Positions 18,504 to 43,946 of a stretch of DNA of 64,000 nt are shown here, one piece after another (the first letter of the stretch is position 1; every line of letters starts with the position of its first letter). The translations under genes and the position numbers were made by a program. Location of the stretch: NCBI GenBank assembly GCA_964526835.1, contig CAZGMK010000015.1, forward strand, positions 3,983-67,982, in the 5' to 3' direction. The notes under the pieces are model-generated. The model did no database searches. It had not been told where the DNA came from and worked only from the letters and a program-made list of their open reading frames with translations. The stretch comes from an uncultured Ignavibacteriales bacterium. GTDB lineage: Bacteria > Zixibacteria > MSB-5A5 > GN15 > FEB-12.

Positions 18504-19709
18504 ATGGCTCCTGACAACAAGTCCCGCAGATCGTGGCTTGCCACGATCACCATGGTTGTTGCCATAGCCATGCTTGCCGCCGCTTCTACAGCCGCTGAAC
18601 CGCTGCCCCAACTGGTTGTGCAGGTTGGTGATACTACCGCCCCGGTAGGCGCCACCGCCACCATTTCAGTCTTTCTGGACAACTACGCGGACACAATCGC
18701 CGGCTTTAACCTGTGGCTGCAACTGGATCGAAACGATATTATGGTCTATGAAACCAGCGTCGACACCCTGATCGACACCCTCCGCTTCTTCTGCGAGAAC
18801 TGGGAGGGCGACAGTTGCACCGATTCTCTGCTGGTGCTCGGCGACACCCTGTATTTCCAGTGCAATGAATGGGATGCGGGGTTCGAATACTGCCTGGATT
18901 CGAGCCTGGTTCCGCTCGACTCGATTATATATGCGGGCTGGAATTACGACTTCTTCTATGAGGCCGAGTGGGACTTCGCGCACATAGACACTGTCGAGCA
19001 GCTTATCGGCACCTTCGACACTACCAATACCCTGGTGTCCGGGTGGGAGTGGATCGACGCTCGATCTTTCTCCAGCGGCGGCTATGACCTCAATGTGGCC
19101 GGTATCGCCGACCTGCCCGGCGGCAGCATTACGACCGGTATCGCTCCCCAGCAGGGCGGCCTGCTGATAAAACTGCAGTCGCAGGTGCTGGAGGACATCC
19201 CCGACACCCTGGCCGATCGTACTGTCAATGTTATGATACAGTCGAATTTCCTGGGCCACTTCAATTTCTCCGATCCCCAGGGGAACTCCATCGGGCTTGA
19301 ATACATCGAAGTACCCGACACCAATTGCTATATATGCACCGCCTGGGCGGGCGATATCTGCCTGAACTGGAAGCGTGTCTCGCTGCCGCCGCCGGGTGGC
19401 TGCGACTCGACTCATGTAGGCGTCGACACCCTGACCCGACTGGATACATCCAAAGTCTGGCTTTACGATGGCTCCCTGACCGTGCTGGGCATGGCCTGCG
19501 GCGATGTTAACGGCGATGGTTCCGAAACTCCGGATATCTCCGACCTGGTTTACCTGGTGAGCTACATGTTCGCCGGCGGGCCCGAACCGGTGCAGATGTG
19601 GGCCGCCGATGTGGACTGCTCCGGCAGCGAGACCCCTGATATTTCCGATCTGGTTTACCTGGTGAGCTATATGTTCTCGGGCGGACCATGGTGCGGCTGT
19701 CAGCCGTAA
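18504..19709 (+). CDS. Secreted cohesin-like + C-terminal dockerin protein
   Basis: AAGGAGG RBS; signal peptide; cohesin-like start VQVGDTTAPVGATATISVFLDN...IAGFNLWL; duplicated GDVNGDG/ADVDCSG-SETPDISDLVYLVSYMFxGGP. Confidence 0.88.
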   Translation: MAPDNKSRRSWLATITMVVAIAMLAAASTAAEPLPQLVVQVGDTTAPVGATATISVFLDNYADTIAGFNLWLQLDRNDIMVYETSVDTLIDTLRFFCENWEGDSCTDSLLVLGDTLYFQCNEWDAGFEYCLDSSLVPLDSIIYAGWNYDFFYEAEWDFAHIDTVEQLIGTFDTTNTLVSGWEWIDARSFSSGGYDLNVAGIADLPGGSITTGIAPQQGGLLIKLQSQVLEDIPDTLADRTVNVMIQSNFLGHFNFSDPQGNSIGLEYIEVPDTNCYICTAWAGDICLNWKRVSLPPPGGCDSTHVGVDTLTRLDTSKVWLYDGSLTVLGMACGDVNGDGSETPDISDLVYLVSYMFAGGPEPVQMWAADVDCSGSETPDISDLVYLVSYMFSGGPWCGCQP

Positions 19710-20036
19710 GCGACTACTGCTACGACCGAAGAGATGACAAAGAAACCGAAGAATAGAGAATCGGCAGCCTTCCCGAGGTCGGGAAGGCCGCCGCAACCGT
19801 TAACCCTCAACGAACGGAAAGGAGGGCGATACACTCAAGAGGTTTCATGCACGCGCTCAAATGAAAGGACGACCAACCGAGTTTTTCAGCATCGTGAAAG
19901 GACCGACCGGGATTTGTGGCTCTCATCCCAAACGAGTTCCGCATCGCGATCTGAGGGGGAAACGAATGGCTGGGTTGTTCGTTGCATCTTCGATTACGAC
20001 AATTGATAATGAAGCATTTAGTTTTAGGAGACTAAA

Positions 20037-22583
20037 ATGAAACGCGTTCCATTGCTTATCGCTTTGGTCCTGACCTTTTCATTTGGGCTGACCTTTGCAC
20101 AAGGTGGGCATATCGAGCTGGACAACCTCAGTGAGGTGACTTTCGAAGACGGAGGCACCACCTACTGGTTTGCCGGTATGCCTCTCGAGTTTGATATGCG
20201 CCTCACCAACGGCCCGGATCCTACCTTGGGTATTACCAACGGTTTCGGGTTTGGTTCGTCAACCGGCGGTACCTACACGCCCGCTTCGATGGTTGAGGCC
20301 GTTGATCAAGGTACCCTGGATACCTGGTTTGACCTGACTCATGGCATCAACACGTTCAGTCTCACCGGCTCAGGCGTCGATACTGTCGCCTGGTACGGCT
20401 CGATCATGATGGGCCCCGGAATTCCGCCCGACTGGACCGGCATCTATGGCGTGATCTCGACCGGTGCTCTGGAAGTCGGCCATGAATACTGCCTCGACTC
20501 GAGCTACTTCCCGCCGTCAGGGACCTGGCTGTGGGCTCCGACCGGCGCCCCGACCTGGGGTGGCCCGTACTGTTTCGAGGCCGCTACTCCGCCGAACTTC
20601 CCGCCGGAGTTCACCACTTGTCCGCCTACCTACACCGGCAGCCACTGCAACACCATCTCACTGGACCTGGCCACGTTCGATGAAGAGGGCGATGCCGTCA
20701 GCTTCGACGTCACGACCGGCCCGGGTGCGGTGACCGACGTTTCGGGCAGTGGTCAGACGACTACCGCCAAGTACACCTTCGCGCCTTCGCTGGCCGATGT
20801 GGGTACCCACACGGTGGTTATCGAAGCCAGTGACCAGTTCGGCACCGGTGATCCCTGCACCTTCGACCTGAACCTCACCAACGAAGCTCCGGTGTGTGAC
20901 TTCGCCTCTGGTCCGTATCTGGTCGGCATGGGTAACACCTTCACCAAAACACTCACTTTCGATCAGGTCGACTGTGACCCGATTACCGATGTCAGTATCA
21001 CCGGCGTCACCCCGGCCCCGGTAGGCACCTACGACATCACCGGTAACGTCTTCACGTTCAACACGGTTGCCCCCGATGATGGCGACAATACTTTCGTGTT
21101 CGAGGTCACCGTCACTGATGGTGTCGGTGAATCCACATGCGAGTTGGTAGTTGAGGTCCTGTCGACTGAGCCTTTCGAGGTTCAGATCGAGAAGGTCCAC
21201 CACGCCATCCAGGGTATGCACCACATGGTTGACGTGACCGTCAACAAGGGTTCCGAGAAGCTCCAGGGCTTCGACATCCTGGTTGCCTACGACGCTTCCG
21301 CTCTGTATTTCGCCGAGGCTCTCCCGGGCGACGTCTACACCGAGTGCGGCTGGGAGTACTTCAACTACCGCTATGGCCCGAACGGCAACTGCGGCAGTGC
21401 CTGTCCGAGCGGCATGCTTCGTGTGGTCGGTATCGCCGAGACCAACAACGGCGCCAACCACCCGGCCTGCTACAACCCGGACCTGGAGTTCACCCTGTTC
21501 ACTCTGGACTTCCTGGTCACCGACGACCGCACTTTCGAGTGCATGTATGTGCCGATCCGGTTCTTCTGGATGGACTGCGGCGACAACTCGCTGGCTTACA
21601 GCACCCAGGACGATCCTGATGCTGTGATCCAGGGCGTGAGCCGCTTCATCTATGACTACGGTCTCGATCCGATGATGGAGATCAGCAACATGACCACCGG
21701 TTTCCCGACCTACACTGGTGTTCAGGAAGAGTGCTTTGACAACGAGCCCGGCAAGCCGTTGCCGATTCAGTTCGTTGACTTCATCAACGGTGGTATCGAC
21801 ATCGTCTGCGCCGACTCGATCGACGCTCGTGGCGACGTCAACCTCAACGGTGTTTCGAATGAAATCGCGGATGCCGTACTGTTCAGCAACTACTTCGTTT
21901 ATGGTCTGGGTGTCTTCACGGTCAATATGGCTGGTCAGATTGCCGCTACCGACGTCAACGCTGATGGTCTGACCCTCAGTGTTGGTGACCTGGTTTATCT
22001 GATCCGTCTGGTCGTTGGCGACGCTCTTCCGTACTCGAAGCTGAGCACGGTTGAAGCCAACTACACCGTGGACGGCGGCGTTGTTTCGATCGACGCGACC
22101 ATGGGTGCTGCGTATCTGGTTGCCTCCGGCAATGTCACTCCGACACTGCTGGCCGACAACATGGAGCTGAAGTACAACTTCGACGGTTCCAACACGCACA
22201 TTCTGGTTTACTCGATGGAGCAGGGCGAGACCTTCCAGGGCGAGTTCATAGAGGCCGGTAACATCATCAGCGCCGAGTTCGCGACCTACGAAGGTGCGCG
22301 CGTCGTCGCCAGTGAGATGCCGACCAACTATGGTCTGGCCCAGAACTACCCGAACCCGTTCAACCCGGTCACCAATATCAGCTTCCAGATGCCGAATAAT
22401 GGTGACTACACTCTGACCGTTTACAACGTGACCGGTCAGGTTGTTGAGACGTTTGCCGGCAATGCTCAGGCTGGTGTCACCACCATCACCTGGGATGCCT
22501 CCAACCAGGCTTCGGGTATCTATTTCTACAAGCTCGAGGTTAACAACTTCTCCGAGACCAAGAAGATGGTCCTGTTGAAGTAA
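20037..22583 (+). CDS. Secreted multidomain scaffold: novel N-terminal domain, Ig/cadherin-like repeats, cohesin-like domain, internal dockerin, degenerate cohesin, T9SS-A/FlgD-like CTD
   Basis: AGGAG RBS; signal peptide; LQGFDILVAYDASAL; RGDVNLNG...EIADAV and TDVNADG...SVGDLVYL; QNYPNPFNP...ASGIYFYKL...KKMVLLK. Confidence 0.9.
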   Translation: MKRVPLLIALVLTFSFGLTFAQGGHIELDNLSEVTFEDGGTTYWFAGMPLEFDMRLTNGPDPTLGITNGFGFGSSTGGTYTPASMVEAVDQGTLDTWFDLTHGINTFSLTGSGVDTVAWYGSIMMGPGIPPDWTGIYGVISTGALEVGHEYCLDSSYFPPSGTWLWAPTGAPTWGGPYCFEAATPPNFPPEFTTCPPTYTGSHCNTISLDLATFDEEGDAVSFDVTTGPGAVTDVSGSGQTTTAKYTFAPSLADVGTHTVVIEASDQFGTGDPCTFDLNLTNEAPVCDFASGPYLVGMGNTFTKTLTFDQVDCDPITDVSITGVTPAPVGTYDITGNVFTFNTVAPDDGDNTFVFEVTVTDGVGESTCELVVEVLSTEPFEVQIEKVHHAIQGMHHMVDVTVNKGSEKLQGFDILVAYDASALYFAEALPGDVYTECGWEYFNYRYGPNGNCGSACPSGMLRVVGIAETNNGANHPACYNPDLEFTLFTLDFLVTDDRTFECMYVPIRFFWMDCGDNSLAYSTQDDPDAVIQGVSRFIYDYGLDPMMEISNMTTGFPTYTGVQEECFDNEPGKPLPIQFVDFINGGIDIVCADSIDARGDVNLNGVSNEIADAVLFSNYFVYGLGVFTVNMAGQIAATDVNADGLTLSVGDLVYLIRLVVGDALPYSKLSTVEANYTVDGGVVSIDATMGAAYLVASGNVTPTLLADNMELKYNFDGSNTHILVYSMEQGETFQGEFIEAGNIISAEFATYEGARVVASEMPTNYGLAQNYPNPFNPVTNISFQMPNNGDYTLTVYNVTGQVVETFAGNAQAGVTTITWDASNQASGIYFYKLEVNNFSETKKMVLLK

Positions 22584-22624
22584 GTTTGCTTTAGGCTTAT
22601 AGTAATAGTAAACGTGACCACGCT

Positions 22625-22656
22625 CCCCGGAGAGGTTAATCCCTCTCCGGGGTTCT
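22625..22656 (+). terminator. Hairpin after 20037-22583
   Basis: CCCCGGAGAGG-loop-CCTCTCCGGGG followed by TTCT (short U-tract). Confidence 0.55.
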
Positions 22657-23128
22657 AAACCGAGACGCCAAGCCAAGGAGTGACGCCAAATCGGATTGCT
22701 AAAGACTTAGAACTGAACCAACAGAACGAAAGAGTTTTACGATGACGACCCCACCTCGGCGCCAGCCGAATCATCTTGCCAAACGGTCGTCTTTTTTTTA
22801 TCTTGACAGGGAAGTCTGGGCGGCCCGACCGTCGGCTGCGCAGAGTGTTGCAACATTGCATAACAGGAAAGATCGCTGCAGTTCAGATAGTACTCTTCAC
22901 CGCAAAGCGCGATTCCTTGGAATACTGCAAGGGGACAGCTATCGTCCGCCAACTAACTGTTTGATTTGCTCTTGGGGCCGATAAGGCCCTGCCGGACATA
23001 TCGTTAAACGGACCTGACGACTACGGCTTCGGCCACCACCGGATCGCCGGAAGGACAGGATGAGACCTTCCCGGCATGATCAGAAAAGAAGCCGTTGGGT
23101 AAGGAAATTGCTCCCAACGGATAGTGAT

Positions 23129-24559
23129 ATGAAGCCTTTGATTCGGAATATGTTGCGCCCGCTTCGCCGGGTCATGCTCGCAGCCGCGCCGGCGGTCATA
23201 CTGATGACCGGCCTTGCGGCCGCTCAGGCCGATTATGTGCTGAAACTGGACACTGTCAGCGGCCAGCCCGGCGCCGCTATCGATTACTATGTCAACCTGG
23301 AGAACGCCGACGAGGTGGGCGGCTTCAACCTGCTGGTGGGCTACGATCCGACCGCCCTGTGGCCGCAAATGATTACCCTCAACGACACCCGCGCCGAGGC
23401 CTTCGAGGAGTTCGAGTTCAGCCTCAACGAAGCCGGCATCCCGGGCAACCTGCGAATGGTCGGCCGGGCCGATGCGCCCGGCGGCGATATCGGGCAGCCC
23501 CTGCCCGCCGGTGATGGCCCCGTGATCCGGATTCGCTTCGGGATCATAAATGACATCCAGTTCGCCGGCATGTGGGTGCCGGTCTGGTTTGAGTTTTCCG
23601 ATCCGCTGACCCAGGATGACAACACGCTCACCAACGTCGTCGGCTCAAAGATCGGTCAGGATGAGATAGACTATTACGACGGCTGGGTCAACATCATGGA
23701 GATGGGCGAGGTATTGCTCGGCGACGTCAATCTCAACGGTTTTGCCTGGGAGGTCAGCGACTACGTCTACCTGACCAACTACTTCATGATGCCGAGCCTG
23801 TATGTCCTGAATGCCCTGCAACTGGCCAACTCCGACATGAATCAGGATCAGATCCCGGCCACCATCGCGGATCTGGTTTACCTGATCAACAGAATCGTCT
23901 CCGGCGCCAGGCTTAACGCCGCAGCGGGGGACCCTTCGCTGCCGGTTGCTGTTCGCCTCGACGAGGCGCCCGACCGCACCAGCATCAGTTATAACGCCGG
24001 GTTCACGGTGGGCGGTGTGCTGCTGGTGCTCAGGGTGTCGGACAACTTCGACGAGTCGGATCTGATCCTCCGTCAGCAGCAGATGAGCTTGGTCACTGAA
24101 CGCCGGGGCGACCGTGTCAGTGTGTTCGTGCACAGCCGCGACGGGCAGACGCTGCCGGCGGGGCACTGGCCGCTCCTTACGACGCCCGCGGGGTCATCGG
24201 TCGAACTGGAGCAGGTGGAACTGGCCAGCGCCGACGGCCGCACCGCGCGCGTAGTGCATAATGGCGGACGGTCGTTGCCGGAGGGTTTCGAACTGGGCCA
24301 GAACTACCCAAACCCGTTCAATCCCACCACGACTATCGAGTTCAGTGTACCCCGACCCGGCCGGGTCAACCTGACGGTATATGATTTGCTTGGACGAAGA
24401 GTGGCGGTGCTGATTGACGATCTCCTCGACGCCGGCCGTCATCGAGTGGTTTTCGATGCTTCGATGATCGGCGGCGAGGTGGCCGCCAGCGGCGTATACT
24501 TCTACCGCCTGCAAACCGACCGAGCCACAGTCACAAGGAAGATGGTACTTTTGAAATAG
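23129..24559 (+). CDS. Secreted cohesin + internal dockerin + degenerate cohesin + T9SS-like CTD protein
   Basis: Start moved to MKPLIRN; signal peptide ends AAAQA; VGGFNLLVGYDP...GDGPVIRIRF; GDVNLNG..EVSDY and SDMNQD..TIADLVYL; QNYPNPFNP...RKMVLLK. Confidence 0.88.
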   Translation: MKPLIRNMLRPLRRVMLAAAPAVILMTGLAAAQADYVLKLDTVSGQPGAAIDYYVNLENADEVGGFNLLVGYDPTALWPQMITLNDTRAEAFEEFEFSLNEAGIPGNLRMVGRADAPGGDIGQPLPAGDGPVIRIRFGIINDIQFAGMWVPVWFEFSDPLTQDDNTLTNVVGSKIGQDEIDYYDGWVNIMEMGEVLLGDVNLNGFAWEVSDYVYLTNYFMMPSLYVLNALQLANSDMNQDQIPATIADLVYLINRIVSGARLNAAAGDPSLPVAVRLDEAPDRTSISYNAGFTVGGVLLVLRVSDNFDESDLILRQQQMSLVTERRGDRVSVFVHSRDGQTLPAGHWPLLTTPAGSSVELEQVELASADGRTARVVHNGGRSLPEGFELGQNYPNPFNPTTTIEFSVPRPGRVNLTVYDLLGRRVAVLIDDLLDAGRHRVVFDASMIGGEVAASGVYFYRLQTDRATVTRKMVLLK

Positions 24560-24617
24560 GCGATTTGCCATGCTTAGCGACCAGAGAGACAGCAAGCAAG
24601 CCCCAGGAGGTTACAAT

Positions 24618-27383
24618 ATGGTGAAGATGATGAGAATCCCGCTCGCAGCGATGATGTTGCTTCTGATTGTCGGCGGCGGCGCATCGGCGCAGATTCCGCC
24701 GGGCATCGAGTGTACCAATGACTACCTTGATTGTGGTGATGTCTCGGAGTCATCGGTCGATACAGTTCGACTGGTCAGCTTCGACGGTCGCCCGGGCGAT
24801 ACCGTCTGGCTGCCGGTATATCTCAAGACAAAGGACGATACCGTGTCCGGTTTTTCGATGATCATCGAATACAGCGACACCTATCTTACGCCTGTCAAGG
24901 CCAGCACCAATCCCGCCGACTCGCTCTACATCAAGTATGAACTCATGGGCGGGCTCCTGGAGGCCCAGCAGCGTTACTGGGACAGTCACCCAAATGACAG
25001 CCCGGATGTTTTCACGGCTGCGATCTCGCAGAACCCTTTCGATGAGGGAGCCATAACCTGCGGCTTCAACCTGTCGACCTTCGACAAGCCGGAGCGGATT
25101 TTCCCCGGCGGTGAGATCATCTTCCGTCTGGCCTTCGAGGTCGATGAAGCTATGCAGGAAGGCCAGACAGCCCAATTCCGCTGGTGGGAGATTAACGAGT
25201 ATTCGATAATCGACACGGGCCAGATGATCGCATACTGCGCGGACTGCCGCCGCACCAACCTGTCGGTGGACAGGACCACGACCTTCCAGGTGTGTGTCGA
25301 TTCGTCTATCAATCGCATCGATACCATCGACACCGGCCCGCCGGTCATAACCGATACTATCTGGCAGTGTGATGAGTATGCGGACACTACCATAATTGTC
25401 AATCGCACACGCAACCCCACTACCCGCGACGGTCAGTTCACGGCCAACCTCTCACCGCCGCCGGTGATAGCGAGTTTCACCAGTTCGGACCCGGACGACT
25501 CGGTCGGCACCAACCAGGGGTTCGTGCTGCAATGGACAGTGGACAACACCGACTCGGTTGTCATTTACCAAGATGCGAATGTGCTTCACACTTCGGTTCA
25601 GAGCAACGGTTTCTTTGCTGCGACCTCGCCATCGACTGCGGGCACATACACCTACACGTTATGGGCGTTCAATCCTTACGACAGTGTTTCGAGATCGATC
25701 GATATACTGGTTCAGGATGGAGATGAACCGCCGCCGGATGAGCATGCGCCGGTTATCAATGTGAACACTTCCTTCAGCATTGATGTCGGCAACACCCTGA
25801 ACTTCACCGTTAACGCCACCGACGTTGACAATGACTTCCTGACCCTGACGGCCACGAATCTGCCCGCGGGAGCCACTTTCCCCAGCGCCCAGGGCACCGG
25901 CTCGGCGTCCTCGACATTCAGCTGGACTCCCGGTTTTAACCAGACAGGCAGTCACACGGCCACTTTCCGGGCCGAGGACGCCACTTCGCGTGTAACCACG
26001 GTGAATGTCACGATCAACGTCAATGAACCCGAATTCGATAAGCTGTTCACCTCCTCTGTCGAAGGCAGCGCCGCTGGCGGCCTGCCCGGCAAGACCAACA
26101 TAGATTTCCCCATCAACCTGGTTACCAGCCAGACTGTCTACGGTGTGCAGTTTGACTTCCTTTACAGCAGTCAGAACTTCACGGTAACCGGGGTTGACGT
26201 AACCGACAATACGGCCGAATACGTAGTATATGAGAACATCGGACAAACGCCCGGCGAGGTTCGATTCGTGACCTTCGGCATGGCCAATGAGCCGATTGGA
26301 ACCGACGGCACGGAGATTCTGCTCGTCAAGATGGCTGTCCGGTCCAACGCCTCTCCGGGCCTGTATCCGATCTACCTGGAGGATGCCTGGGAATCGATCA
26401 ACCCCGACCCGTCGATCCCCTCGCTGCCCCTGATGAGCGACAGCGGGATCATCATGGTCGATGCTTACGGCGACGTTAACCTCGATACCCGCATCGACGT
26501 GGCCGACCTGGTCAGCATTGTGGGGTATATCATCGGCGACTTTCCCCTCGACCCGCGCCGCTATGAGGTTGCGGACATGGTGGTCGATGGTGTCGTGGAT
26601 GTATTCGACCTGGTGGCGGTGATCAACTCCATCTACGGGGCGCCGATCGACGCAGCGCCGCCGCAGTTCATCGAGGACCGTTTCGCCAGTGTCGAGTTGG
26701 ACTACGCCGCCATGGCCGGCGGGCTGTCGGATGAATTGACGATCCGCTCGGAGATGCCTGTCGACATCGCCGGTGTTCAGCTCGAGATTCTCTATGATCC
26801 GGGCGTGGTCCAGTTGGGCGTGCCGGAGTTGACCGAGGATGTTCCGCATCTGGCCCTGCGCAGCCGGGATGACGGCAACGGGCGGATGACCATCCTCATG
26901 TACTCCTCCAATCCGTTCGCGGCCGATAAGATAATCCGGGCGGGCCGCAGCGACCTGGTCAACATACCGATCAGGACGATCCGTCGGCTTGATGTCGGCG
27001 ACCGGTCGCAACTGGTTCTTAACCAGGCCAAACTGGCCACGGAGAACGCTATGGCGGTCAAGGTGCACGGTATGGATGCACCCCTGCCGACCAGTTTTCA
27101 CCTGGCTCAAAATTACCCGAACCCGTTTAACCCGACCACCACTATCGAGTTTACCCTCGGCGCACCGGGACAGACCGGCGCCCAGCGGGTAGATCTGAAT
27201 GTCTACAACATACTTGGCCAACAGGTGAAAGAGCTGATCAGCGGCACCCTGCCCGCGGGCAACCATCAGGTTACCTGGGACGGAACCGATGGCGCCGGGA
27301 AACAGGTTGCTTCCGGAATCTACCTGTACAGGTTACAGGTCGGCGACGCCAGCCAGGCCAAGAAGATGCTGCTGCTCAAATAG
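24618..27383 (+). CDS. Secreted scaffold: two cohesin-like domains, Ig and cadherin-like domains, internal dockerin, degenerate cohesin, T9SS-like CTD
   Basis: AGGAGG RBS before MVKMMRIP; VSGFSMIIEY...GEIIFRLAF; VYGVQFDFLY; GDVNLDTRIDVADL and ADMVVDGVVDVFDL; QNYPNPFNP...KKMLLLK. Confidence 0.9.
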   Translation: MVKMMRIPLAAMMLLLIVGGGASAQIPPGIECTNDYLDCGDVSESSVDTVRLVSFDGRPGDTVWLPVYLKTKDDTVSGFSMIIEYSDTYLTPVKASTNPADSLYIKYELMGGLLEAQQRYWDSHPNDSPDVFTAAISQNPFDEGAITCGFNLSTFDKPERIFPGGEIIFRLAFEVDEAMQEGQTAQFRWWEINEYSIIDTGQMIAYCADCRRTNLSVDRTTTFQVCVDSSINRIDTIDTGPPVITDTIWQCDEYADTTIIVNRTRNPTTRDGQFTANLSPPPVIASFTSSDPDDSVGTNQGFVLQWTVDNTDSVVIYQDANVLHTSVQSNGFFAATSPSTAGTYTYTLWAFNPYDSVSRSIDILVQDGDEPPPDEHAPVINVNTSFSIDVGNTLNFTVNATDVDNDFLTLTATNLPAGATFPSAQGTGSASSTFSWTPGFNQTGSHTATFRAEDATSRVTTVNVTINVNEPEFDKLFTSSVEGSAAGGLPGKTNIDFPINLVTSQTVYGVQFDFLYSSQNFTVTGVDVTDNTAEYVVYENIGQTPGEVRFVTFGMANEPIGTDGTEILLVKMAVRSNASPGLYPIYLEDAWESINPDPSIPSLPLMSDSGIIMVDAYGDVNLDTRIDVADLVSIVGYIIGDFPLDPRRYEVADMVVDGVVDVFDLVAVINSIYGAPIDAAPPQFIEDRFASVELDYAAMAGGLSDELTIRSEMPVDIAGVQLEILYDPGVVQLGVPELTEDVPHLALRSRDDGNGRMTILMYSSNPFAADKIIRAGRSDLVNIPIRTIRRLDVGDRSQLVLNQAKLATENAMAVKVHGMDAPLPTSFHLAQNYPNPFNPTTTIEFTLGAPGQTGAQRVDLNVYNILGQQVKELISGTLPAGNHQVTWDGTDGAGKQVASGIYLYRLQVGDASQAKKMLLLK

Positions 27384-36148: not shown

Positions 36149-36586
36149 GTTATTGCTATCGCCCTAGTGCGGTGGCATTGCAAAATGGCGTGGTCTCACG
36201 TAATTCTCGCTTGGTGATTGGGTTTTCACTCAAGCTCATAATGTATGGCTTCGGTAGAGATGCTGTACGTGAAGGTTGACGAAGAACGTTTCTAGGCAAT
36301 TGCTTTGATGTACGCAAGCTTTGTATTTCCATTGCTTCAGAACGCGAAACTACTCAACCCTGAGGGCTGGCGTATATGATGCGCCCGGCGCTCGATTCGG
36401 ACGTAAGGAGGTGTACCCCGCAGCAGAGTAATTGAAACAAACTGACGGTTGCATTTTGATGAAAAGGGTATCCCGCCCGAGACCGCATATAAGGACGAAC
36501 CTTTCACTCGGTCGAAGGATGATGCCCGGACACGAAAGCATTTTCTTGTTGGGAACTTGTTAACTTCTTATCAAAAGGAGCGATTG

Positions 36587-39500
36587 ATGACCAGGAGAAT
36601 TTCTACTCTGATGATTCTCTCCTTACTGGTAGTCGCCCTCATGGCTATGTCGGTTTCCGCCGCCAAGGCCCCCCAGAGCACGCGCATAATCAGCCCGGAC
36701 GCAAAGAGGGTTATGCAGTATGCGCTGCCGATGGCGGGCGCCGAGACGGCGACCTTTGGCTCTTCGAGCAAGGGCCAGACCGAACAGGCCCTGGGCATGG
36801 CCAACCCGCCGAATTCCGGTTCGCCCGGTATGGCCGTTGGCCTGACCACCTACGACTATCAGCACAACGGCCGTATGCCCCGCATGGTCGACTGGGGCTA
36901 CGATGCCACCCAGGGATTCGCCATTCACTTCCTGTGGATGTGGATGGAGGGTTCGACCATTGCGAACCGCAAATACGCCTATAACGCCTGGAAAGACAAC
37001 GCCAGCGATCTGGCCTTCCCTTACACCGGGGCATCTGAAGTCCAGGACGATGGTGGTATGGCCGGTTACGTGGCGCTTGATGTCACCGACACCGACTACG
37101 GTGACGGCATCAACCTGCCGAACCTTGCCGTGCCTTCAGGCCACGAACACACCGGCGATGGTGTGTATCGTGTTACGACCTACTGGGATTTCACACCGGT
37201 CATGGGTTTCTTCAACACGAGCTCAGCGGTTTCGGATGCGGTTTGGCAGTATGCCTTGCAGCCGGATGGCGAGTATGTCATCTGGCCGTCGATGGCCTAT
37301 CAGGACATTCCGGGCAATGACCCGGTGCTGCACGTTTTCGCGCAGGAATCCAAGCCTGATGCGGCCGATCCGCAGTCGATCTACTACTTCCGTAAGGTTG
37401 GTTATCAGGATGCCGGTACCTGGGATTTCCCGCCTTACGTTGTCGACACCGTCTTTGACATCGCTCAGGATGTCACCGCTTCCAAGACCAATGGCAAGGT
37501 TGCGTTGGTGTGGGTGGCCAACCTGCCGGCTCCCGGCGACTGCGACACCTGCTCCGACAACACGGGCAACCACGCCGAGGTCAGTGTCCAGTTGGACAAT
37601 GATATGTACTATCAGATATCGAACGACTTCGGTGCGACTTTCCAGCCTCGTGTCAACCTGACGCAGAACCAGAGAGGCGTGGACGGTTATCGTCCGTATA
37701 CCGACCTGCAGTCTCTGATCACCTCCGACAACAACCTGCACATAATCTGGACCGGCCGTGTCTGGGAAGGCTCGGCTGAGCCGACCACGGCTTACACCTG
37801 GCGCTGCCGTGTTTTCCACTGGAGCGAGCTGGTTACCTGCGGTCCGCGTACCGTGGCTGATCTGGAATGGGATCAGACGACTTGTGACGGTGGTTCCTGG
37901 AACCAGTTGAACGCCGCCAAGCCGGGCCTCGGTGAATGTAACGGCCGTCTGTATGCCACCTGGACGCAGTTCAACAACACGCCGGAAGGCGACACTGCCG
38001 ACTGCGCCCAGCGCGGTCTTGACGGCAGCGATTTTGTTGGTGCGGCCAACGGTGAGCTGTGGGTTTCGGTGTCTGAGGACCTCGTTGGTGTGCTTTGGGA
38101 CAAGCCCCGTAACATGACCAACTCCCCGAGCCCGGGCTGCGATCCTGAGGGCGGCAGCGATCCCTGTGATTCCGATCACTGGTCGTCGATAGCCCGTGAG
38201 GGTTACGGCTACGGCGCTTCGACCGGCTACGGCGCGAATGTTCCGGACTCGGCCAAGGTGGACGTTTCCGGTTCTTACACCGGCGACGCCTACATTCCGA
38301 TGCAGTACATCCACGACATCGATGCCGGTGGTATCGTACAGGATGAGGGTACCTGGCAGGAAAACCACGTAGTGTGGTTCTCGCTTGCCTGTGTCGACCC
38401 GGTTGAGACCAAGTTGTTGTCGGTCAGCCCGTCAGAGGTCGGCTACCCGGCCTGGACCGATACCGACGTGAGCAACACCGGCGACACCACCCTGGTACTT
38501 GAGAATACCGGTAACGCCCAGTTCACGGCCAACTACTCGATCACCATGAGCACCGACGGCAGCATTACGCCGAGCTCAGGTAACGTGACGATCCCGGCCG
38601 GCTGCAACAACACGACCACCCTGCCGATCACGTTCACTCAGGGCAGCGGTACCAGTGTGGCTGGTGAACTGACCTTCACGGGTTCGTTCGACAACTCGCC
38701 GCGGGTGGTCCCGCTCGAGTGGTTCTTCGTTGATACCCTTATCCCGCCGAAGTGGGATACTGTTTATGTGGACGACGGTACCAAGGCCGCGGCTCTGGCT
38801 CTTATCGTTGCCAACAATGGTAACAAGGGTAATCAGGGCAGAGGCCACGTGAACCTCGACTACTTCGACTACGGTGACTGCGACGTCTATCCTGAAGGCG
38901 GCGATGATCTGTATCCGGGCGATGCCTCGATCTATCTGTACGATGGTTCGAAGATCATCTGCTGGGATGACGCCGGTACTCCGGTCTGCGACGCCTCTAT
39001 CTTCGATCGTAACTGGATCCAGGGTGGCTTCGTGCCCGGCGCCTACAGCAGCGCCGACGTTGTTCCGGCCTGGGTGCCCACCCCGGGCGGTACGCCGGTT
39101 GGTGACTTCTTCACCGCCACCTACTACAACCGCGACACCACTATCCAGATCGACGAGCTGACCTTTGGTCCGGACAGCCCGACCAACCCGAACTGGATGA
39201 TTCAGGTCGCCAAGTTCAGCAACCTGACCGGCAGCGATATCAGCGGTCTGGCTATTGGTGAAGGCATCGACTGGGATGTCCCGTCCGACTCCGCTTCCTG
39301 GAACAACTCGGGCTTCGACGCTACGCGTCGCCTGATGTATCAGGTTGGTTCCGAGTTTGGTCAGGACGATCAGTGTCAGCCCAACGACGACCGCTACGGT
39401 GGTCTGGCTGTGGCCGCCCAGTATGACGGCACCAACTGGACCGAAGCCACTTACGGCCTGTACACCCTCGACAACTCGACCCAGGTGTATCCGTTTGGCG

Positions 39501-39982
39501 GTTTCGACGATGACTCGTTGTGGAAGTACATGGAGCAGAACAGCGGTTTCTCGATTTCCGATGCGACCGACGATGACCTGCACATGATGGCCACGTACCA
39601 GTGGAACTACACGCTGACCGCTTCCGGTGAGCTGGTGGTTTACACCTGTCTGGTGACCGAGAAGGCCGGTGAGGCCGCCTTCCTGGCCGCCTGTGATGAG
39701 TGTCTGGCTTACGTGGACAGTGAGTTCAAGCCGGGCGGCGGCGAGACCTGCTGCAACCTGCGCGGCGACATCGACCACAGTGGCGCCGGTCCGGACATCT
39801 CCGACTTGGTCTACCTGGTGAGCTATATGTTCTCCGGTGGCACGCCTCCTCCGTGTGAAGAAGGCGGCGTTTACCTTGAGGCCGACGTCGACGGTAGTGG
39901 CGCCGGTCCGGACATCTCCGACCTGGTTTACCTGGTGAGCTACATGTTCTCCGGTGGCCCGGCCCCGGTTCCGTGTCCGTAA
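36587..39982 (+). CDS. Large Cys-rich secreted protein (probable propeller-like region, Ig-like and beta-sandwich regions) with C-terminal dockerin
   Basis: AAGGAG RBS before MTRRISTL; signal peptide; VGLTTYDYQHNG; LSVSPSEV...LVLENTGNA; two copies of GAGPDISDLVYLVSYMFSGG framed by Cys; no CTD. Confidence 0.9.
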   Translation: MTRRISTLMILSLLVVALMAMSVSAAKAPQSTRIISPDAKRVMQYALPMAGAETATFGSSSKGQTEQALGMANPPNSGSPGMAVGLTTYDYQHNGRMPRMVDWGYDATQGFAIHFLWMWMEGSTIANRKYAYNAWKDNASDLAFPYTGASEVQDDGGMAGYVALDVTDTDYGDGINLPNLAVPSGHEHTGDGVYRVTTYWDFTPVMGFFNTSSAVSDAVWQYALQPDGEYVIWPSMAYQDIPGNDPVLHVFAQESKPDAADPQSIYYFRKVGYQDAGTWDFPPYVVDTVFDIAQDVTASKTNGKVALVWVANLPAPGDCDTCSDNTGNHAEVSVQLDNDMYYQISNDFGATFQPRVNLTQNQRGVDGYRPYTDLQSLITSDNNLHIIWTGRVWEGSAEPTTAYTWRCRVFHWSELVTCGPRTVADLEWDQTTCDGGSWNQLNAAKPGLGECNGRLYATWTQFNNTPEGDTADCAQRGLDGSDFVGAANGELWVSVSEDLVGVLWDKPRNMTNSPSPGCDPEGGSDPCDSDHWSSIAREGYGYGASTGYGANVPDSAKVDVSGSYTGDAYIPMQYIHDIDAGGIVQDEGTWQENHVVWFSLACVDPVETKLLSVSPSEVGYPAWTDTDVSNTGDTTLVLENTGNAQFTANYSITMSTDGSITPSSGNVTIPAGCNNTTTLPITFTQGSGTSVAGELTFTGSFDNSPRVVPLEWFFVDTLIPPKWDTVYVDDGTKAAALALIVANNGNKGNQGRGHVNLDYFDYGDCDVYPEGGDDLYPGDASIYLYDGSKIICWDDAGTPVCDASIFDRNWIQGGFVPGAYSSADVVPAWVPTPGGTPVGDFFTATYYNRDTTIQIDELTFGPDSPTNPNWMIQVAKFSNLTGSDISGLAIGEGIDWDVPSDSASWNNSGFDATRRLMYQVGSEFGQDDQCQPNDDRYGGLAVAAQYDGTNWTEATYGLYTLDNSTQVYPFGGFDDDSLWKYMEQNSGFSISDATDDDLHMMATYQWNYTLTASGELVVYTCLVTEKAGEAAFLAACDECLAYVDSEFKPGGGETCCNLRGDIDHSGAGPDISDLVYLVSYMFSGGTPPPCEEGGVYLEADVDGSGAGPDISDLVYLVSYMFSGGPAPVPCP

Positions 39983-40037
39983 TTTAGCTGACTGATTCGG
40001 GATCACATTTGTAGTGATTCCATCCGAATACAGCACC

Positions 40038-40071
40038 GCCATCCCCGCCTTCGGGCGGGGATGGCCTTTTT
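40038..40071 (+). terminator. Rho-independent terminator with cUUCGg loop
   Basis: GCCATCCCCGCC-TTCG-GGCGGGGATGGC-CTTTTT. Confidence 0.92.
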
Positions 40072-40349
40072 ATGTCTTGGAGAACCGCGGAACGTGGCTA
40101 TATTTAGGCGTCTGCATGCTCAATACCTGCATGAGCGTGACCGGGCATCCCGGCAAGCGTCGCCGGGTGTGGCCATCGAATCACGCATGAACCTAACCGG
40201 TCCATCATGTGTTGTATTCGTATAACTATGGGCAATTCGGCTGTGGTGGAACGCCCGCCCGAAACTGCTGCCAGAGGTAAATGATCGCAGGAAAAGTGTC
40301 GTCAATAGATAACAGCAACAATAGCCTTTCTAACTCAGCGGAGCATTTC

Positions 40350-42740
40350 ATGAACTCACAGCGAACAATACCGACGCAACTGCTGGCCATTGTCGGGGCG
40401 GCGGCGCTGGTGCTGGCGCTAGGGCTGCCGGCGCAGGCGGAGTACAAGTCCGACAGGCCCCCACCGAGACCGTATATTATCGAGGGAGTAGTGACGGTGG
40501 TCTTCGCCGATCATGCCAATCTCTCCAACTACAACGATGGCTTCAAGAGGGCGAACTTCGCCCTGCCGACCCTGGATGCGGTGCTCGAGCAGTTCGAGGC
40601 CGAGTCGGCCAGAAGGCTGTTCCCCTGGGAGAAACAGCGCCCCGACAAGTCATCGAGTATGCCCGACTACACGCGCTACTGGGAAGTGAAGTTCCCCGCC
40701 AAATACGACGTAGCCGAGTTGATCGAGGCCCTGGAGCGGAATCCGAATGTCCGCCAAGCCGAGCCGGTATGGGCCCTGCCGCTGGCAGCCACGCCCAACG
40801 ACCCGAGTTTCAACAGCCAGTGGCACTGGAACAACGGCGGCCTGGATATGGAGGGCGGGTGGGATTACGAGACAGGTAGCGAGTCGATCGTGGTGGCTAT
40901 CATCGATTCCGGCGTCAACCACAATCACCCCGACATCAGGCGGCACCTCTGGATCAATCCTGGCGAGGATATCGACGGCGATATGGAGCCCTTCGATGTG
41001 GACGACCTGAATGGTGTCGACGATGACGACAATGGTGTTGTCGACGACCTCAACGGGTATGATTTCTTCACCGGGATCAGCAATCCGCACCCGGGGGAGG
41101 ATGCCGGCACGCCCGACCCGGACTACAATGACTTCAACGGCCACGGCACCGGCTGCGCCGGAATCGTCTCCGCCATCACCAACAACAGCAGCTACGTGGC
41201 CGGTATGGCCGGCGGCTGGACCGAGGGACAGCGCTTCTACCGTGGGGTGAGCATTATGGCCCTGAGAGTGGGCGCCACCGCCTCCGACGGCAACGGCTAT
41301 GTGAACTCCAATAACTGCGGCACGGCCATTCAGTACGCCGCCCGCAACGGCGCGCATGTCATAAACTGCTCCTGGGGGGCGACCAGCACCGCCACCATGA
41401 ATGCGGGTATGGTCTTGGTTGACTCGGCGGGTGTTACGATTACCCACGCGGCGGGTAACGACAACGCCAACGACCCTGATTACCTGGACGCAGACCCCGG
41501 TGGCGTGCAGGTCCTGTCGGTCGCCTCGGTGACCGGAAGCGATGTCAAGTCGTCGTTCTCCAACTACGGTTTCTGGGTTGACGTGAGCGCCTACGGCGAT
41601 GCCATTCTGATGCCCTGGTCGAACCAGTACAGCCCCACGACCAGCACCTCGTGGGGAACCTCGTTCGCGGCTCCGATGGTGGCCGGGCTGGCGGCCCTGA
41701 TTCGCTCCGCCATGCCGTCGCTCACCAAGGAGCAGGTCGACTCGATCATCATTAACACCGCCGATGACGTCAACGGCGTCAACCCTTCGTACTTCGGCAT
41801 GCTCGGCTCAGGCCGGATCAGCGCCAGCGCAGCGCTCGGCGGCCTGGCCAATGCGAAGTTCGTGGCGGATGTCTACGAGGGCCCGGCCCCCCTCACAGTG
41901 CAGTTCACCGATCAGTCGCCCTACTTGCCGACCGCCTGGACCTGGAGCTTCGGCACCGGCGACAGCGCCGGTGTGCAGAATCCCCAGTATACGTACAACG
42001 ATCCGGGCATCTACGATGTCTCGCTGATAGTCGACGATAGCGTTAGCCTTGGTCCGGGCGAAGAGCATTTGAGAAACCTGATCTGGGTGACCGCCGATAC
42101 CCTCAAGATGGACTCGGTCATTATCGAGCGCGGGGGAACAGCGGTAGTTGGGGTTCGCGTTTCCAATACCTCGCTTCTGGCGGAGCTTCAGTTCGCCTTT
42201 GATTTCACCAACGACGACGGCATCGCGCTGGACAGCTTCACGGTTACAGGTACGCGCACCGATTATTTCTACGATGTCAGTTTGAACGGGCTCTCGGGCC
42301 AGAAGCAGTCCATCAGGTTCCGCCCGGACGACCCCGCGAGCGGCTCCTCGAATTATCTGCCGGCCGACACCGGCGCTATTCTGAACCTGTGGTTCTCGGC
42401 GGCCTCTTACGCACCGCCCGCGGCGGTGGTCGTGATCGACACCACCCACATCGGCACCAAGACAACCAAACTGACCTCGATCTGGGGTGAGCTGGTTCCG
42501 GTGATCGTGCCCGGAAAGGTGGTCGTTAACGCCTGCGGACGCGGCGATGTCGATTGCAGCGGCGCCATCGATATCCAGGATCTGGTTATTCTTGTCGCCT
42601 TCATGTTCCAGGGCGGCCCGCCGCCGGATCCCTGGTATACCGGCGATGTGAACGGCGATGGAGCCGGCCCGTCGATCGACGACCTGGTCTACCTGGTGTC
42701 TTACATGTTCAGTGGCGGCCCGCCCCCTCCGCCGATGTGA
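40350..42740 (+). CDS. Secreted S8 subtilase + PKD + cohesin-like domain + C-terminal dockerin
   Basis: Start moved to MNSQRTIP; triad VAIIDSG, NGHGTGCAG, GTSFAAP; PKD (PLTVQFTDQS...WTWSFG...YTYNDPGIYDVSL); cohesin-like LAELQFAF...GAILNLWF; dockerin GDVDCSG..DIQDL and GDVNGDG..SIDDLVYLVSYMFSGGP. Confidence 0.95.
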   Translation: MNSQRTIPTQLLAIVGAAALVLALGLPAQAEYKSDRPPPRPYIIEGVVTVVFADHANLSNYNDGFKRANFALPTLDAVLEQFEAESARRLFPWEKQRPDKSSSMPDYTRYWEVKFPAKYDVAELIEALERNPNVRQAEPVWALPLAATPNDPSFNSQWHWNNGGLDMEGGWDYETGSESIVVAIIDSGVNHNHPDIRRHLWINPGEDIDGDMEPFDVDDLNGVDDDDNGVVDDLNGYDFFTGISNPHPGEDAGTPDPDYNDFNGHGTGCAGIVSAITNNSSYVAGMAGGWTEGQRFYRGVSIMALRVGATASDGNGYVNSNNCGTAIQYAARNGAHVINCSWGATSTATMNAGMVLVDSAGVTITHAAGNDNANDPDYLDADPGGVQVLSVASVTGSDVKSSFSNYGFWVDVSAYGDAILMPWSNQYSPTTSTSWGTSFAAPMVAGLAALIRSAMPSLTKEQVDSIIINTADDVNGVNPSYFGMLGSGRISASAALGGLANAKFVADVYEGPAPLTVQFTDQSPYLPTAWTWSFGTGDSAGVQNPQYTYNDPGIYDVSLIVDDSVSLGPGEEHLRNLIWVTADTLKMDSVIIERGGTAVVGVRVSNTSLLAELQFAFDFTNDDGIALDSFTVTGTRTDYFYDVSLNGLSGQKQSIRFRPDDPASGSSNYLPADTGAILNLWFSAASYAPPAAVVVIDTTHIGTKTTKLTSIWGELVPVIVPGKVVVNACGRGDVDCSGAIDIQDLVILVAFMFQGGPPPDPWYTGDVNGDGAGPSIDDLVYLVSYMFSGGPPPPPM

Positions 42741-42807
42741 GGTGACACCTCGCCGCTTCAAGTGAACTTCTCGCGGGCAGATGTATATCATCCGCCCGCA
42801 GTAACTG

Positions 42808-42844
42808 CGCCCGGTGAACATATAACTGTCACCGGGCGTTTTTT
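42808..42844 (+). terminator. Rho-independent terminator
   Basis: CGCCCGGTGA...TCACCGGGCG followed by TTTTTT. Confidence 0.8.
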
Positions 42845-42847
42845 CTA

Positions 42848-42876
42848 TTGACGCCTTGCTTGCCGGGCAGTATCAT
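42848..42876 (+). promoter_or_regulatory. Sigma70-type promoter
   Basis: TTGACG-N17-TATCAT upstream of 43062. Confidence 0.6.
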
Positions 42877-43061
42877 TTGCCGCATAAGGTGAGTCATGCG
42901 GTGTGAAAATGCATGCGGGCCTGCCCCTTTTGCAAGGAGGTGACGCCTGATCAAAAAGCGTTAACTGATTTTACCTTGTTTGACTCGTTAATTGCCATAC
43001 GTTGACAGATAGATTGAAGAGAATGGTAGTGTTTAGATAGACGCATGGAGGCTATGCAAGT

Positions 43062-43946
43062 ATGAAGACAAAGTTATTGACAGTTCTGGCGGTTTTGACT
43101 CTGGGCGCCTGCGGCCTGGCGTGGGGGCAGAGTGTATCTGTGGACCATGTTGACGGCACGCTCATCGGCTCCGATACCCTGATGCAAGACAGCACGTACA
43201 CTTTCTATCTTCGTTGGCAAGGTCCTGCTGATCGTAACGTGGACGGGGTCACTACGGGCTGGCGGGTACACTCGCCTGATGGCGGCACTTGGACTACGAC
43301 TGTCATTGACACAACCGGTACCCTGGGAGGAGCCCAATTCGATTTGGTCTGGCAGCTTCAGCCAGCCGGGTGGGAAGGTAATGTTACCGGCTCTGGTGCT
43401 GATACGATCGGTGTAGGCGGCGCCAAGATGTTTGGTCCGGGCATGCCGGCAGGCTTTGACGATATCGTCAACACCATCACCATCGGCCCGATCGGCCAGG
43501 ATGACGGTAAGCAGATTTGTCTGGACTCTTCGTACTACCCACCGTCCGGTCTGTGGAAGTGGGCTGCAGAGGGTAGCGTTGACTATTTCCCTGTCTGGGA
43601 CGGTCCGCATTGCTATACCATTGAAGTTGCAAGCGACGTTTCCGCCCGTCCCTCCGATGGCCTGCCCACCCGGTGGATGATGAGCCAGAACTACCCGAAC
43701 CCGTTCAACCCGACCACCGAGATCGCTTTCGACGTCCCCTCGCGCTCTCATGTCACCCTGAATGTGTACAACGTTCTCGGCCAGCAGGTGGCGACCCTTG
43801 TCGACCAGGAGCTGGCCCGCGGGAGCTACACGGCCGACTGGGACGGTACCAGCACCTCCGGGACCGCCGCGGCCAGCGGGGTTTACTTCTACCGTCTGGA
43901 AGCCGACCAATACATCGACACCAAGAAAATGGTGCTGATGAAGTAG
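43062..43946 (+). CDS. Small secreted protein: one novel Cys-containing domain + T9SS-like CTD
   Basis: GGAGG RBS; signal peptide; domain homologous to the N-terminus of 20037 (TGSGADT, GPGMP, CLDSSYYPPSGLWKWA, WDGPHC); QNYPNPFNP...KKMVLMK. Confidence 0.9.
   Translation: MKTKLLTVLAVLTLGACGLAWGQSVSVDHVDGTLIGSDTLMQDSTYTFYLRWQGPADRNVDGVTTGWRVHSPDGGTWTTTVIDTTGTLGGAQFDLVWQLQPAGWEGNVTGSGADTIGVGGAKMFGPGMPAGFDDIVNTITIGPIGQDDGKQICLDSSYYPPSGLWKWAAEGSVDYFPVWDGPHCYTIEVASDVSARPSDGLPTRWMMSQNYPNPFNPTTEIAFDVPSRSHVTLNVYNVLGQQVATLVDQELARGSYTADWDGTSTSGTAAASGVYFYRLEADQYIDTKKMVLMK

Follow-up and report, generated by a model that had tools for sequence, protein, structure and literature searches.

The 64-kb window analysed here (contig CAZGMK010000015.1, positions 3,983 to 67,982, from an uncultured bacterium labelled Ignavibacteriales and placed by GTDB in the Zixibacteria) is chromosomal DNA of about 58% G+C, with SecA, peptidoglycan-recycling genes, an OmpA-family protein and regulators on board. 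Between 18.5 and 44 kb it holds eight genes arranged head to tail on the plus strand, and each of their products, as read from the translations, opens with a Sec-type signal peptide. The operon combines cohesins, dockerins and the type A C-terminal domain (CTD) of type IX secretion systems (T9SS), and is a candidate for a system that displays proteins on the cell surface. Its seven dockerins, all of which have the duplicated calcium-loop-helix pattern, fall into two classes, A and B, that differ in their position in the chain and in their association with the CTD.

Class A dockerins lie at the extreme C-terminus of four products, with the stop codon 0-6 residues past the duplicated F-hand module. 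The first gene of the operon, g18504 (18504..19709), encodes a small adaptor with a cohesin-like region at about aa 34-330 and the dockerin at aa 331-401 (nt 19494-19706). At 2862 aa, the g27407 product (27407..35995) is a giant adhesin; it contains over 20 He_PIG/Big_9/cadherin-like repeats (20 stretches matched by Pfam He_PIG, at 540 bits) and a dockerin in its last 68 aa (35789-35992). In g36449 (start 36587; 36587..39982), a passenger of about 1050 aa, which matches no Pfam or NCBIfam family, is followed by a four-Cys dockerin in the last 78 aa (39746-39979). The fourth gene, g40281 (start 40350; 40350..42740), encodes an S8 subtilase domain (40884-41777; Pfam Peptidase_S8, 141 bits), a PKD domain (41877-42047, also matched by Pfam), a cohesin (42096-42515) and a dockerin at aa 750-819 (42528-42737). 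The helices of these modules read DLVYLVSYMF followed by GGPxP, with the consensus DISDLVYLVSYMFxGGPxP, and three of the four are framed by cysteines, the exception being g27407. A class A hidden Markov model (HMM) built from the window scores g18504 at 113 bits ending 6 aa before the stop, g27407 at 116.5 bits (0 aa) and g36449 at 121.5 bits (2 aa). The residue pairs at F-hand positions 10/11 of the two repeats are IS/IS in g18504, IN/IS in g27407, IS/IS in g36449 and IQ/ID in g40281. Neither Pfam nor TIGR04183 detects a CTD in any of the four proteins. The description of this class in the initial annotation, as terminal, often Cys-framed dockerins with MFxGGPxP-like tails, IS, IN, IQ or ID at positions 10/11 and no CTD, is borne out for all four genes.

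Class B dockerins, of the GDVNLNG type, are internal, lie 180-240 residues before the C-terminus and lack the GGP tail. In g20037 (20037..22583), the signal peptide is followed by a module that we call N20 (about 20184-20579), an immunoglobulin (Ig)-like region, a cohesin (about 21198-21806), the dockerin (21804-22031), a beta-sandwich, X (22074-22337), and the CTD (22347-22580). The product of g23060 (start 23129; 23129..24559) is shorter, with a cohesin (23234-23722), the dockerin (23708-23926), a beta-sandwich X (23927-24262) and the CTD (24305-24556). The third, g24570 (start 24618; 24618..27383), carries two cohesins (24732-25253 and 26034-26453) with an Ig domain between them (25743-26024), then the dockerin (26442-26666), a beta-rich X region (26691-27098) and the CTD (27114-27380). 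TIGR04183 (cut-off 23) recognizes the CTD in all three, at 53.3 bits in g20037, 40.3 in g23060 and 32.3 in g24570; Pfam adds a match of 48.4 bits to the g20037 CTD, Por_Secre_tail in g23060, and both FlgD_ig and Por_Secre_tail in g24570. Positions 10/11 read IA/VG in g20037, VS/IA in g23060 and VA/VF in g24570. The internal location, the missing tail, the listed residue pairs and the CTD in all three proteins thus agree with what had first been noted from the sequence, as does the presence of a CTD without a dockerin in two further genes: g43062 (43062..43946), the last of the operon, with a signal peptide, an N20 module (43197-43622) and a CTD (43692-43943; 39.7 bits), and g59731 (start 59746; 59746..63432, plus strand), which lies outside the operon and encodes an M6 metalloprotease (Peptidase_M6, 102 bits; M6 domain TIGR03296, 211 bits) with a CTD at 63193-63429 (37.7 bits). 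By this make-up g59731 would be T9SS cargo anchored directly and not through a dockerin. The probability that four class A proteins without a CTD and three class B proteins with one would separate in this way by chance is 1/35, or 0.029.

To place the window in a wider context, relatives of both classes were collected, giving about 250 modules in 150 loci. The class A scan took one genome per species and returned 70 loci (L002-L071), from JBDRES01 (40 loci), from metagenome-assembled genomes (MAGs) named Zixibacteria, Ignavibacteriales or Calditrichaeota, and from a few contigs under other-phylum labels. The latter include contigs labelled Patescibacteria, Thermoplasmatota, Planctomycetales and Terriglobales (L059, L003, L039 and L066). 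Since L059, with its Patescibacteria label, encodes the same 301-aa protein as L061 from JBDRES01, some of these labels are probably binning errors. For class B, a mixed alignment proved too diverse and the metagenome scan was narrowed to the g20037-type dockerin, so that the resulting statistics mainly cover orthologs of the three g20037, g23060 and g24570 proteins; 146 loci orthologous to g20037 were confirmed and the best 80 of them were analysed.

When 257 modules and three solved dockerins are clustered by the unweighted pair-group method (UPGMA), 152 class A and 103 class B modules fall apart without any mixing, and class B is the first to join the clostridial references. Mean identity is 48% among class A modules and 57% among class B modules, as against 26% between the classes. 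They also differ in internal symmetry: the two repeats are 65% identical over 29 residues in class A (27 of 33 aligned positions agree in the g36449 dockerin) and 37% identical over 21 residues in class B. In cellulosomes, internally symmetric dockerins are the cargo type with a dual binding mode, and asymmetric ones the structural type with a single mode. The g20037 dockerin scores 104.9 bits with a class B HMM and 25.2 bits with the class A HMM. Comparison of the sequences therefore supports two real dockerin classes, as the initial annotation had proposed when it suggested a dockerin tree as a check. The residue pairs at positions 10/11, which had been listed there as marks of the two classes, do not hold up outside the window. 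IA is the commonest class A pair among the relatives and is also the first-repeat pair of the g20037-type class B dockerin, and VA likewise occurs in both classes, so these positions are not diagnostic and were rejected as class markers.

The class A signature is well defined. Searched with the window HMMs, loci L002-L071 contain 138 class A modules in 124 proteins, and in 78 of 113 modules the chain ends 9-11 aa past helix 2. An N-terminal Cys is present in 91% of modules, as CC in 56%; 61% have a Cys behind the first GGPxP, and 93% have one in the tail. The resulting four-Cys clamp is predicted to be a disulfide clamp, and the module often has a 13-residue loop. Profiles of class A and class B pick out solved clostridial dockerins, with E 4e-6 and 1e-3, respectively. 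In a filter-free search of 1.84 billion representative proteins, the class A profile hit 34,630 clusters at E<=1e-3, of which 10,674 pass E<=1e-10. Class A is thus a very large dockerin subfamily, mostly missed by current Pfam, whose marks are the symmetric repeats, the GGPxP tails and the four-Cys clamp. The class A alignment, used in a homology search, brought up only fragments of less than 140 aa, which were of no use for architectures. Tandem arrays of 4-12 class A-like modules, each Cys-framed (e.g. CIDEDDIYYLVDYFFHDGPPPVECTC), were also seen (L033:8666-10204, L047:229-1767, L065:6358-7407 and P0159-P0170) and could act as multivalent cross-linkers.

Class A modules are fused to dozens of unrelated passengers. 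Among 121 non-redundant relatives, scanned with Pfam over the last 400 aa of each, a range that N-terminal catalytic domains could escape, the passengers include beta-propellers and beta-helices, and the commonest families are PKD, TSP_3 and peptidases C10, S8, C25 and M4. The g36449 passenger (36587-39745) is itself conserved, with BNR-like motifs such as SNDFGATF, and its paralogs are common among the class A cargo of JBDRES01. Signal peptides of the signal peptidase I (SPI) type were found in 85 of 111 class A proteins. Five proteins were flagged for a lipobox, but in each the Cys lies inside the hydrophobic core, and lipoprotein export of class A cargo was rejected. In the window, the apparent cleavage site directly precedes Gln in four of nine signal peptides (TFA|Q in g20037, ASA|Q in g24570, ALA|Q in g27407 and AWG|Q in g43062). 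This resembles the Q-rule of Bacteroidetes, which is said not to cover the entire FCB (Fibrobacteres-Chlorobi-Bacteroidetes) group (PMC5837995).

Cohesins are the key context for both dockerin classes, and one that the initial annotation did not mention. They are present in all three class B proteins and, singly, in g40281, and g18504 probably carries one as well. Searches between the window cohesins with phmmer returned only orthologs, and it was an iterated profile that connected them. Pfam Cohesin (cut-off 24.1) matches g23060 at 26.0 bits and g24570 at 53.5 bits in two stretches, with the N-terminal cohesin of g24570 alone reaching 25.6 bits; the g20037 cohesin is matched weakly (13.6 bits) by Pfam and at E 2e-21 by the iterated profile. 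In an AlphaFold2 model of g23060, based on 17 orthologs and with a pLDDT of 73, the N-terminal domain resembles type I cohesins with a TM-score of about 0.8 and an rmsd of 2.4 Å, and beyond it lie helices, another beta-sandwich and the CTD. For g18504, which no Pfam family matches, the iterated profile defines a conserved family that is weakly linked to the cohesins of g23060 and g24570, and several other small proteins likewise consist of a signal peptide, a cohesin-like domain and a class A dockerin.

Given that each combines a signal peptide, one or more cohesins, a class B dockerin, a beta-sandwich and a CTD, we regard g20037, g23060 and g24570 as scaffoldins. No carbohydrate-binding module (CBM) was found in them with Pfam. 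Their dockerin follows the cohesin directly and the extra beta-sandwich comes after it, so class B is not a type II dockerin of the X-Doc kind, in which an X module stands right in front of the dockerin and contributes to binding. To judge from this setting, class B would act like a scaffoldin-tier dockerin. It was seen only in three or four orthologous scaffoldin families plus a few variants, and the association between class B and the CTD therefore reflects few independent events.

A different arrangement of cohesin and dockerin recurs in the cargo. In 19 of about 121 non-redundant class A cargo proteins (about 16%, by iterated profile), a cohesin-like domain stands directly before the dockerin. 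In the window this cassette spans 42096-42737 (g40281 aa 606-819, with the cohesin at aa 606-745) in the layout S8-PKD-cohesin-dockerin, and elsewhere it is found at L005:7874-10207, in L012, L018, L022 and L070, and in others, with the conserved cohesin motifs ADT[LM] and GCRT[DE]YF. The iterated profile finds the g40281 cohesin at E 3e-23, and hhalign aligns it with the g23060 cohesin family at 96.8% probability. Pfam Cohesin matches one of 18 aligned cargo cohesins, and the cargo-cohesin profile finds no solved structure at a significant E-value. The assignment of these cargo cohesins draws on hhalign and on Foldseek with a poor model: the first 42 Foldseek matches of the g40281 cassette model are all cohesins, with TM-scores up to 0.73, but the model has low confidence (pLDDT 51) because the homology search gave only three full-length relatives. 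In the same low-confidence model, the beta domain is followed by two helices. Cohesins sort according to the dockerin class that accompanies them, those of cargo, of g18504-type proteins and of scaffoldins forming separate groups. The cassette would permit more than a plain star of cargo around a scaffold: cargo could be chained, or held at two points, with class A on a scaffoldin cohesin and class B on the cargo cohesin.

How far class A and the CTD exclude each other was tallied in the relatives. Pfam Por_Secre_tail is present in three of 121 class A proteins. In the best 80 of the 146 metagenome loci, a CTD is present in 85 of 88 complete class B reading frames, the three exceptions appearing truncated, and all 13 class A modules in the same loci are terminal, none with a CTD. 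PF18962 is found in all 17 full-length orthologs of g23060. JBDRES01 has 40 class A loci versus three or four class B scaffoldins, and such counts support a cargo tier and a scaffold tier. On a global scale, the best 150 class A matches, 149 of which were scored, comprise eight with a CTD, 101 that end in the dockerin and 40 with other endings. These include a C-terminal S8 domain, a transmembrane anchor, and tandem arrays in which up to 11 modules were counted (the profile search gave 12 stretches); some of the arrays stand before such an S8 domain or anchor.

The exceptions are informative. In L021 (1460 aa), L040 (2194 aa) and L061 (819 aa), a class A module is followed by about 210 residues made up of a beta-sandwich and a CTD, in the spot that class B occupies in scaffoldins, and in L021:6455-10834 a class B-like module lies just upstream of the class A module. 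Conversely, L031:8045-10231 encodes a scaffoldin-like protein with two cohesins, a class B dockerin and a spacer that ends in a class A dockerin in place of the CTD. The mutual exclusivity first noted in the window therefore stands there, but beyond it is a strong bias and not a rule: for 119 of 138 class A modules the stop is at most 25 residues away, and co-occurrence is rare, with exceptions at 2.5-5% of class A proteins. Where class A and the CTD do co-occur, the two tags are evidently compatible in one polypeptide.

These exceptions bear on a simpler account, in which both classes would bind the same cohesins and would differ only structurally, as a C-terminal, disulfide-clamped cap and a module in an internal linker context, and in which the CTD pattern would reflect the rule of one domain per C-terminus. 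A CTD has to sit at the C-terminus, and a dockerin that is itself terminal trivially rules one out; the cargo dockerins of clostridial cellulosomes are usually C-terminal as well, and the recognition positions 10/11 overlap between the classes, as seen above for IA and VA. Against this, the internal class A modules of L021, L040 and L061 keep the GGPxP tail and the Cys frame at the class B location, L021 and L031 each carry both classes in one chain, the 26% identity between the classes goes with a sharp difference in repeat symmetry, and cohesin subtypes follow the dockerin class within the same protein. A single tier of binding thus seems unlikely. Location in the chain as the determinant of class was itself rejected, the internal modules of L021 and L040 retaining all class A features.

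The N20 module provides a more direct comparison of the two endings. This module of about 140 aa, with the motif CLDSSYxPPSGxWxW...GPxC and no Pfam match, is common to the N-terminus of g20037 and g43062 (163 bits with the N20 profile) and occurs in 52 open reading frames of the loci. It is joined to a terminal class A dockerin in 12 proteins, to a CTD alone in five, and to class B plus CTD in 24. These swaps, along with that in L031, speak most strongly for treating the class A dockerin and the CTD as alternative devices of C-terminal attachment, and they favor the suggestion, made from the window alone, that the class A dockerin stands in for the CTD in anchoring.

The operon itself is conserved. 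The order g18504, g20037, g23060, g24570, g27407 recurs wherever contigs are long enough, and in JBDRES01 (L002 and L068) one contig holds the full set through g43062, plus a following gene of glycoside hydrolase family 35 (GH35). Orthologs of g27407 are found in L068 and L152. The Zixibacteria MAG GCA_029860345.1 encodes, in order, a tetratricopeptide-repeat (TPR) protein, a g18504 ortholog (a 443-aa cohesin-like protein with a terminal class A dockerin), three CTD proteins (855, 480 and 911 aa), of which the second and third have cohesin matches, and a 5339-aa Ig-repeat giant.

The domain identities, the two dockerin classes and their positions, the co-occurrence statistics and the conservation of the operon are what was observed. 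The reading that we prefer, at a probability of about 70%, is a T9SS-anchored, two-tier cohesin-dockerin display system in a Zixibacteria-type diderm of the FCB group. In such a system, the CTD of the three scaffoldins would carry the chain across the outer membrane and be exchanged for a covalent link to the surface, by analogy with characterized T9SS cargo. The class A dockerin would tether Sec-dependent cargo non-covalently to cohesins. This cargo would comprise, in the window, the S8 protease, the 2862-aa Ig-repeat adhesin, the 1130-aa g36449 protein and the small cohesin-like adaptor, with many more in related genomes. The class A dockerin would then be an indirect, and the CTD a direct, way to fix a passenger on the surface, and as alternatives they would explain both their rare co-occurrence and the C-terminal seat of each. 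Class B would be a separate specificity, confined to scaffoldins and organizing the scaffold layer, where it likely links scaffoldins to each other or to the cohesins beside the class A dockerin on cargo. We infer these pairings of dockerin and cohesin, together with the surface anchoring and the route by which class A proteins are exported. Judged by the cargo so far, which consists of proteases and adhesins (in the window and in the last 400 aa of the relatives, so that carbohydrate-active enzymes may be cargo as well), the system is probably not a cellulosome in the strict sense, with cargo dominated by plant-cell-wall glycoside hydrolases and a cellulose-binding CBM on the scaffoldin.

Several points weigh against this two-tier reading. 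No T9SS machinery (SprA, PorV, PorU, GldKLMN) is encoded in the 64-kb window, the one stretch searched for it, and class A cargo has no recognizable route across the outer membrane. The 2.5-5% of class A proteins that also carry a CTD show the two tags to be compatible in one chain, and the arrays, C-terminal S8 domains and transmembrane anchors among the global matches mean that the class A-like module is not tied to one architecture. In the g23060 model, the dockerin part has low confidence (pLDDT about 40-65). Finally, Pfam Dockerin_1 (cut-off 22.9 bits) passes only g24570 (24.1) in the window; g40281 (19.7) and g27407 (17.8) fall under the cut-off, there is no match at E<0.01 in the class A proteins g18504 and g36449 or in the class B proteins g20037 and g23060, and the family recognizes 19 of 121 class A relatives (E<=1e-3).

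That most class A modules fall under the Dockerin_1 cut-off would also fit a module that is not a cohesin ligand at all, serving instead as a calcium-dependent binder of another target (a surface glycan, lipopolysaccharide or peptidoglycan) or as a stabilizer of the C-terminus. The 34,630 clusters that match the class A profile are far more than the cohesins seen, and outside cellulosomes it is common for dockerin-like modules to have no known cohesin partner, according to Peer et al. (2009), as summarized in the citing paper (PMC8542988). This explanation is nevertheless highly improbable: the class A profile matches solved dockerins that bind cohesins at E 4e-6, class A and cohesin genes lie intermingled in a conserved operon, and about 16% of class A proteins have a cohesin directly upstream of the dockerin.

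The question of export gives rise to a further alternative. Class A cargo could, as the initial annotation had suggested with its piggy-backing on a CTD partner, bind the cohesins of CTD-bearing scaffoldins in the periplasm and leave through the T9SS as a folded, non-covalent complex, so that the dockerin would both anchor its protein and signal indirectly for its secretion. The class A proteins have only a Sec/SPI signal, with neither CTD nor lipobox, yet as proteases and adhesins they are expected outside the cell, and every CTD-anchored cohesin protein sampled shares an operon with class A cargo. The T9SS is known to move folded proteins, including very large ones (review PMC9251779), and, judging by its four-Cys frame, the dockerin folds in an oxidizing compartment, such as the periplasm offers. 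There is, however, no direct evidence for such co-export; one review describes piggy-back transport for Tat and peroxisomal systems only and not for the T9SS (PMC9251779), and we found no report of hitchhiker secretion through the T9SS among the papers searched. Each genome has many cargo proteins, including those of 2862 and 5339 aa, every one of which would need a scaffoldin for export, and the existence of chains with both class A and a CTD means that the dockerin is not a simple replacement of the secretion signal. Class A-like modules are moreover found with transmembrane anchors and in MAGs of other phyla (some of these labels being probable binning errors), and type II secretion would be a simpler route. 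We give co-export with scaffoldins little credence, and keep the two-tier display system as the preferred reading.

The surroundings of the operon contain regulators and other genes that may be of interest. Directly upstream, at 15363-17695 on the minus strand, are two adjacent HDOD-domain proteins, one with a GAF domain, and downstream, at 49921-51480 on the plus strand, is a GAF-GGDEF diguanylate cyclase; these may place the surface system under control linked to cyclic di-GMP. Between SecA and the regulators, a restriction-modification-like block on the minus strand (7499-12190) encodes a T5orf172/ResIII helicase-nuclease protein of 846 aa, an Eco57I-type methylase of 498 aa and an MmeI-like methyltransferase fragment of 221 aa. 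The OmpA-family protein, at 55100-56542, contains thrombospondin type 3 (calcium-binding) repeats, and TSP_3 also occurs in 19 of the 121 class A dockerin proteins.

Cohesin-dockerin assembly is textbook knowledge for Gram-positive cellulose degraders. Here it appears as a conserved operon in an uncultured diderm phylum, joined to predicted anchoring by type IX secretion, and it raises the testable question of how proteins equipped with no more than a Sec signal and a dockerin get to a diderm's cell surface. The homologous passenger pairs, with a dockerin end in one and a CTD end in the other, are ready-made constructs for addressing export, and orthogonal dockerin classes could serve as surface-display parts in T9SS hosts. 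A literature search for Zixibacteria with dockerins or T9SS found nothing relevant. What appears to be new is the pair of dockerin classes with their statistics, the signature and family size of class A, the three-scaffoldin operon, the cargo cassette and the dockerin/CTD swaps.

The best-known point of comparison is the cellulosome of Clostridium thermocellum, with its hierarchy of type I enzyme dockerins on CipA cohesins and a type II X-dockerin of CipA on type II cohesins anchored by S-layer homology (SLH) repeats. The two systems share the cohesin and dockerin folds, many C-terminal, symmetric cargo dockerins as against few divergent scaffoldin dockerins, surface-fixed scaffoldins (a predicted trait here) and adaptors with both a cohesin and a dockerin. 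Unlike the clostridial system, the host here is a diderm and the anchor would be a T9SS type A CTD in place of SLH repeats or sortase; each anchored scaffoldin has its own dockerin before the beta-sandwich and CTD, so that the X module comes after the dockerin; the cargo so far consists of proteases and adhesins and not of cellulases, with many cargo proteins carrying their own cohesin; and class A has the four-Cys frame, the GGPxP tails and often the 13-residue loop.

Closer in lineage is Candidatus Stygibacter (Cloacimonadota), for which a cellulosome-like complex was predicted from MAGs (Williams et al. 2021, PMC8542988), so that the general concept is already on record for Cloacimonadota. 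It too is an FCB-group diderm, with signal-peptide enzymes that end in dockerins, including S8 and C25 peptidases, and a cohesin scaffoldin that a T9SS CTD would attach to the cell's own surface. Its scaffoldin, however, is a single giant chain of 3755 aa that carries CBM2/CBM3 modules besides tandem cohesins, in contrast to three small scaffoldins in a conserved operon, each with a class B dockerin, and no second dockerin class, cohesin-dockerin cassette or statistics of dockerin versus CTD were reported for it (PMC8542988).

With type A cargo of the T9SS, such as the gingipains of Porphyromonas gingivalis (TIGR04183/PF18962), the scaffoldins share the beta-sandwich CTD with its NYPNPFNP motif, the preceding Ig-like or beta-sandwich domain and the Sec signal peptide; unlike gingipain-type cargo, the passengers are cohesin-dockerin scaffolds and not enzymes, and their anchoring is predicted. 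As in ScaB of Acetivibrio cellulolyticus and ScaA of Ruminococcus flavefaciens, a cohesin and a dockerin of different kinds in one chain would permit a hierarchy, but here, unlike in those adaptors, the pair is also found on catalytic cargo (S8-PKD-cohesin-dockerin). Finally, like known non-cellulosomal modules (Peer et al. 2009), for example the Archaeoglobus fulgidus cohesin (PDB 2xdh), which is among our structural matches, the cohesins and dockerins here are carried by proteins that seem unrelated to cellulose breakdown. Those modules are mostly scattered single occurrences, whereas here they are organized in a conserved operon with anchors and many cargo proteins.

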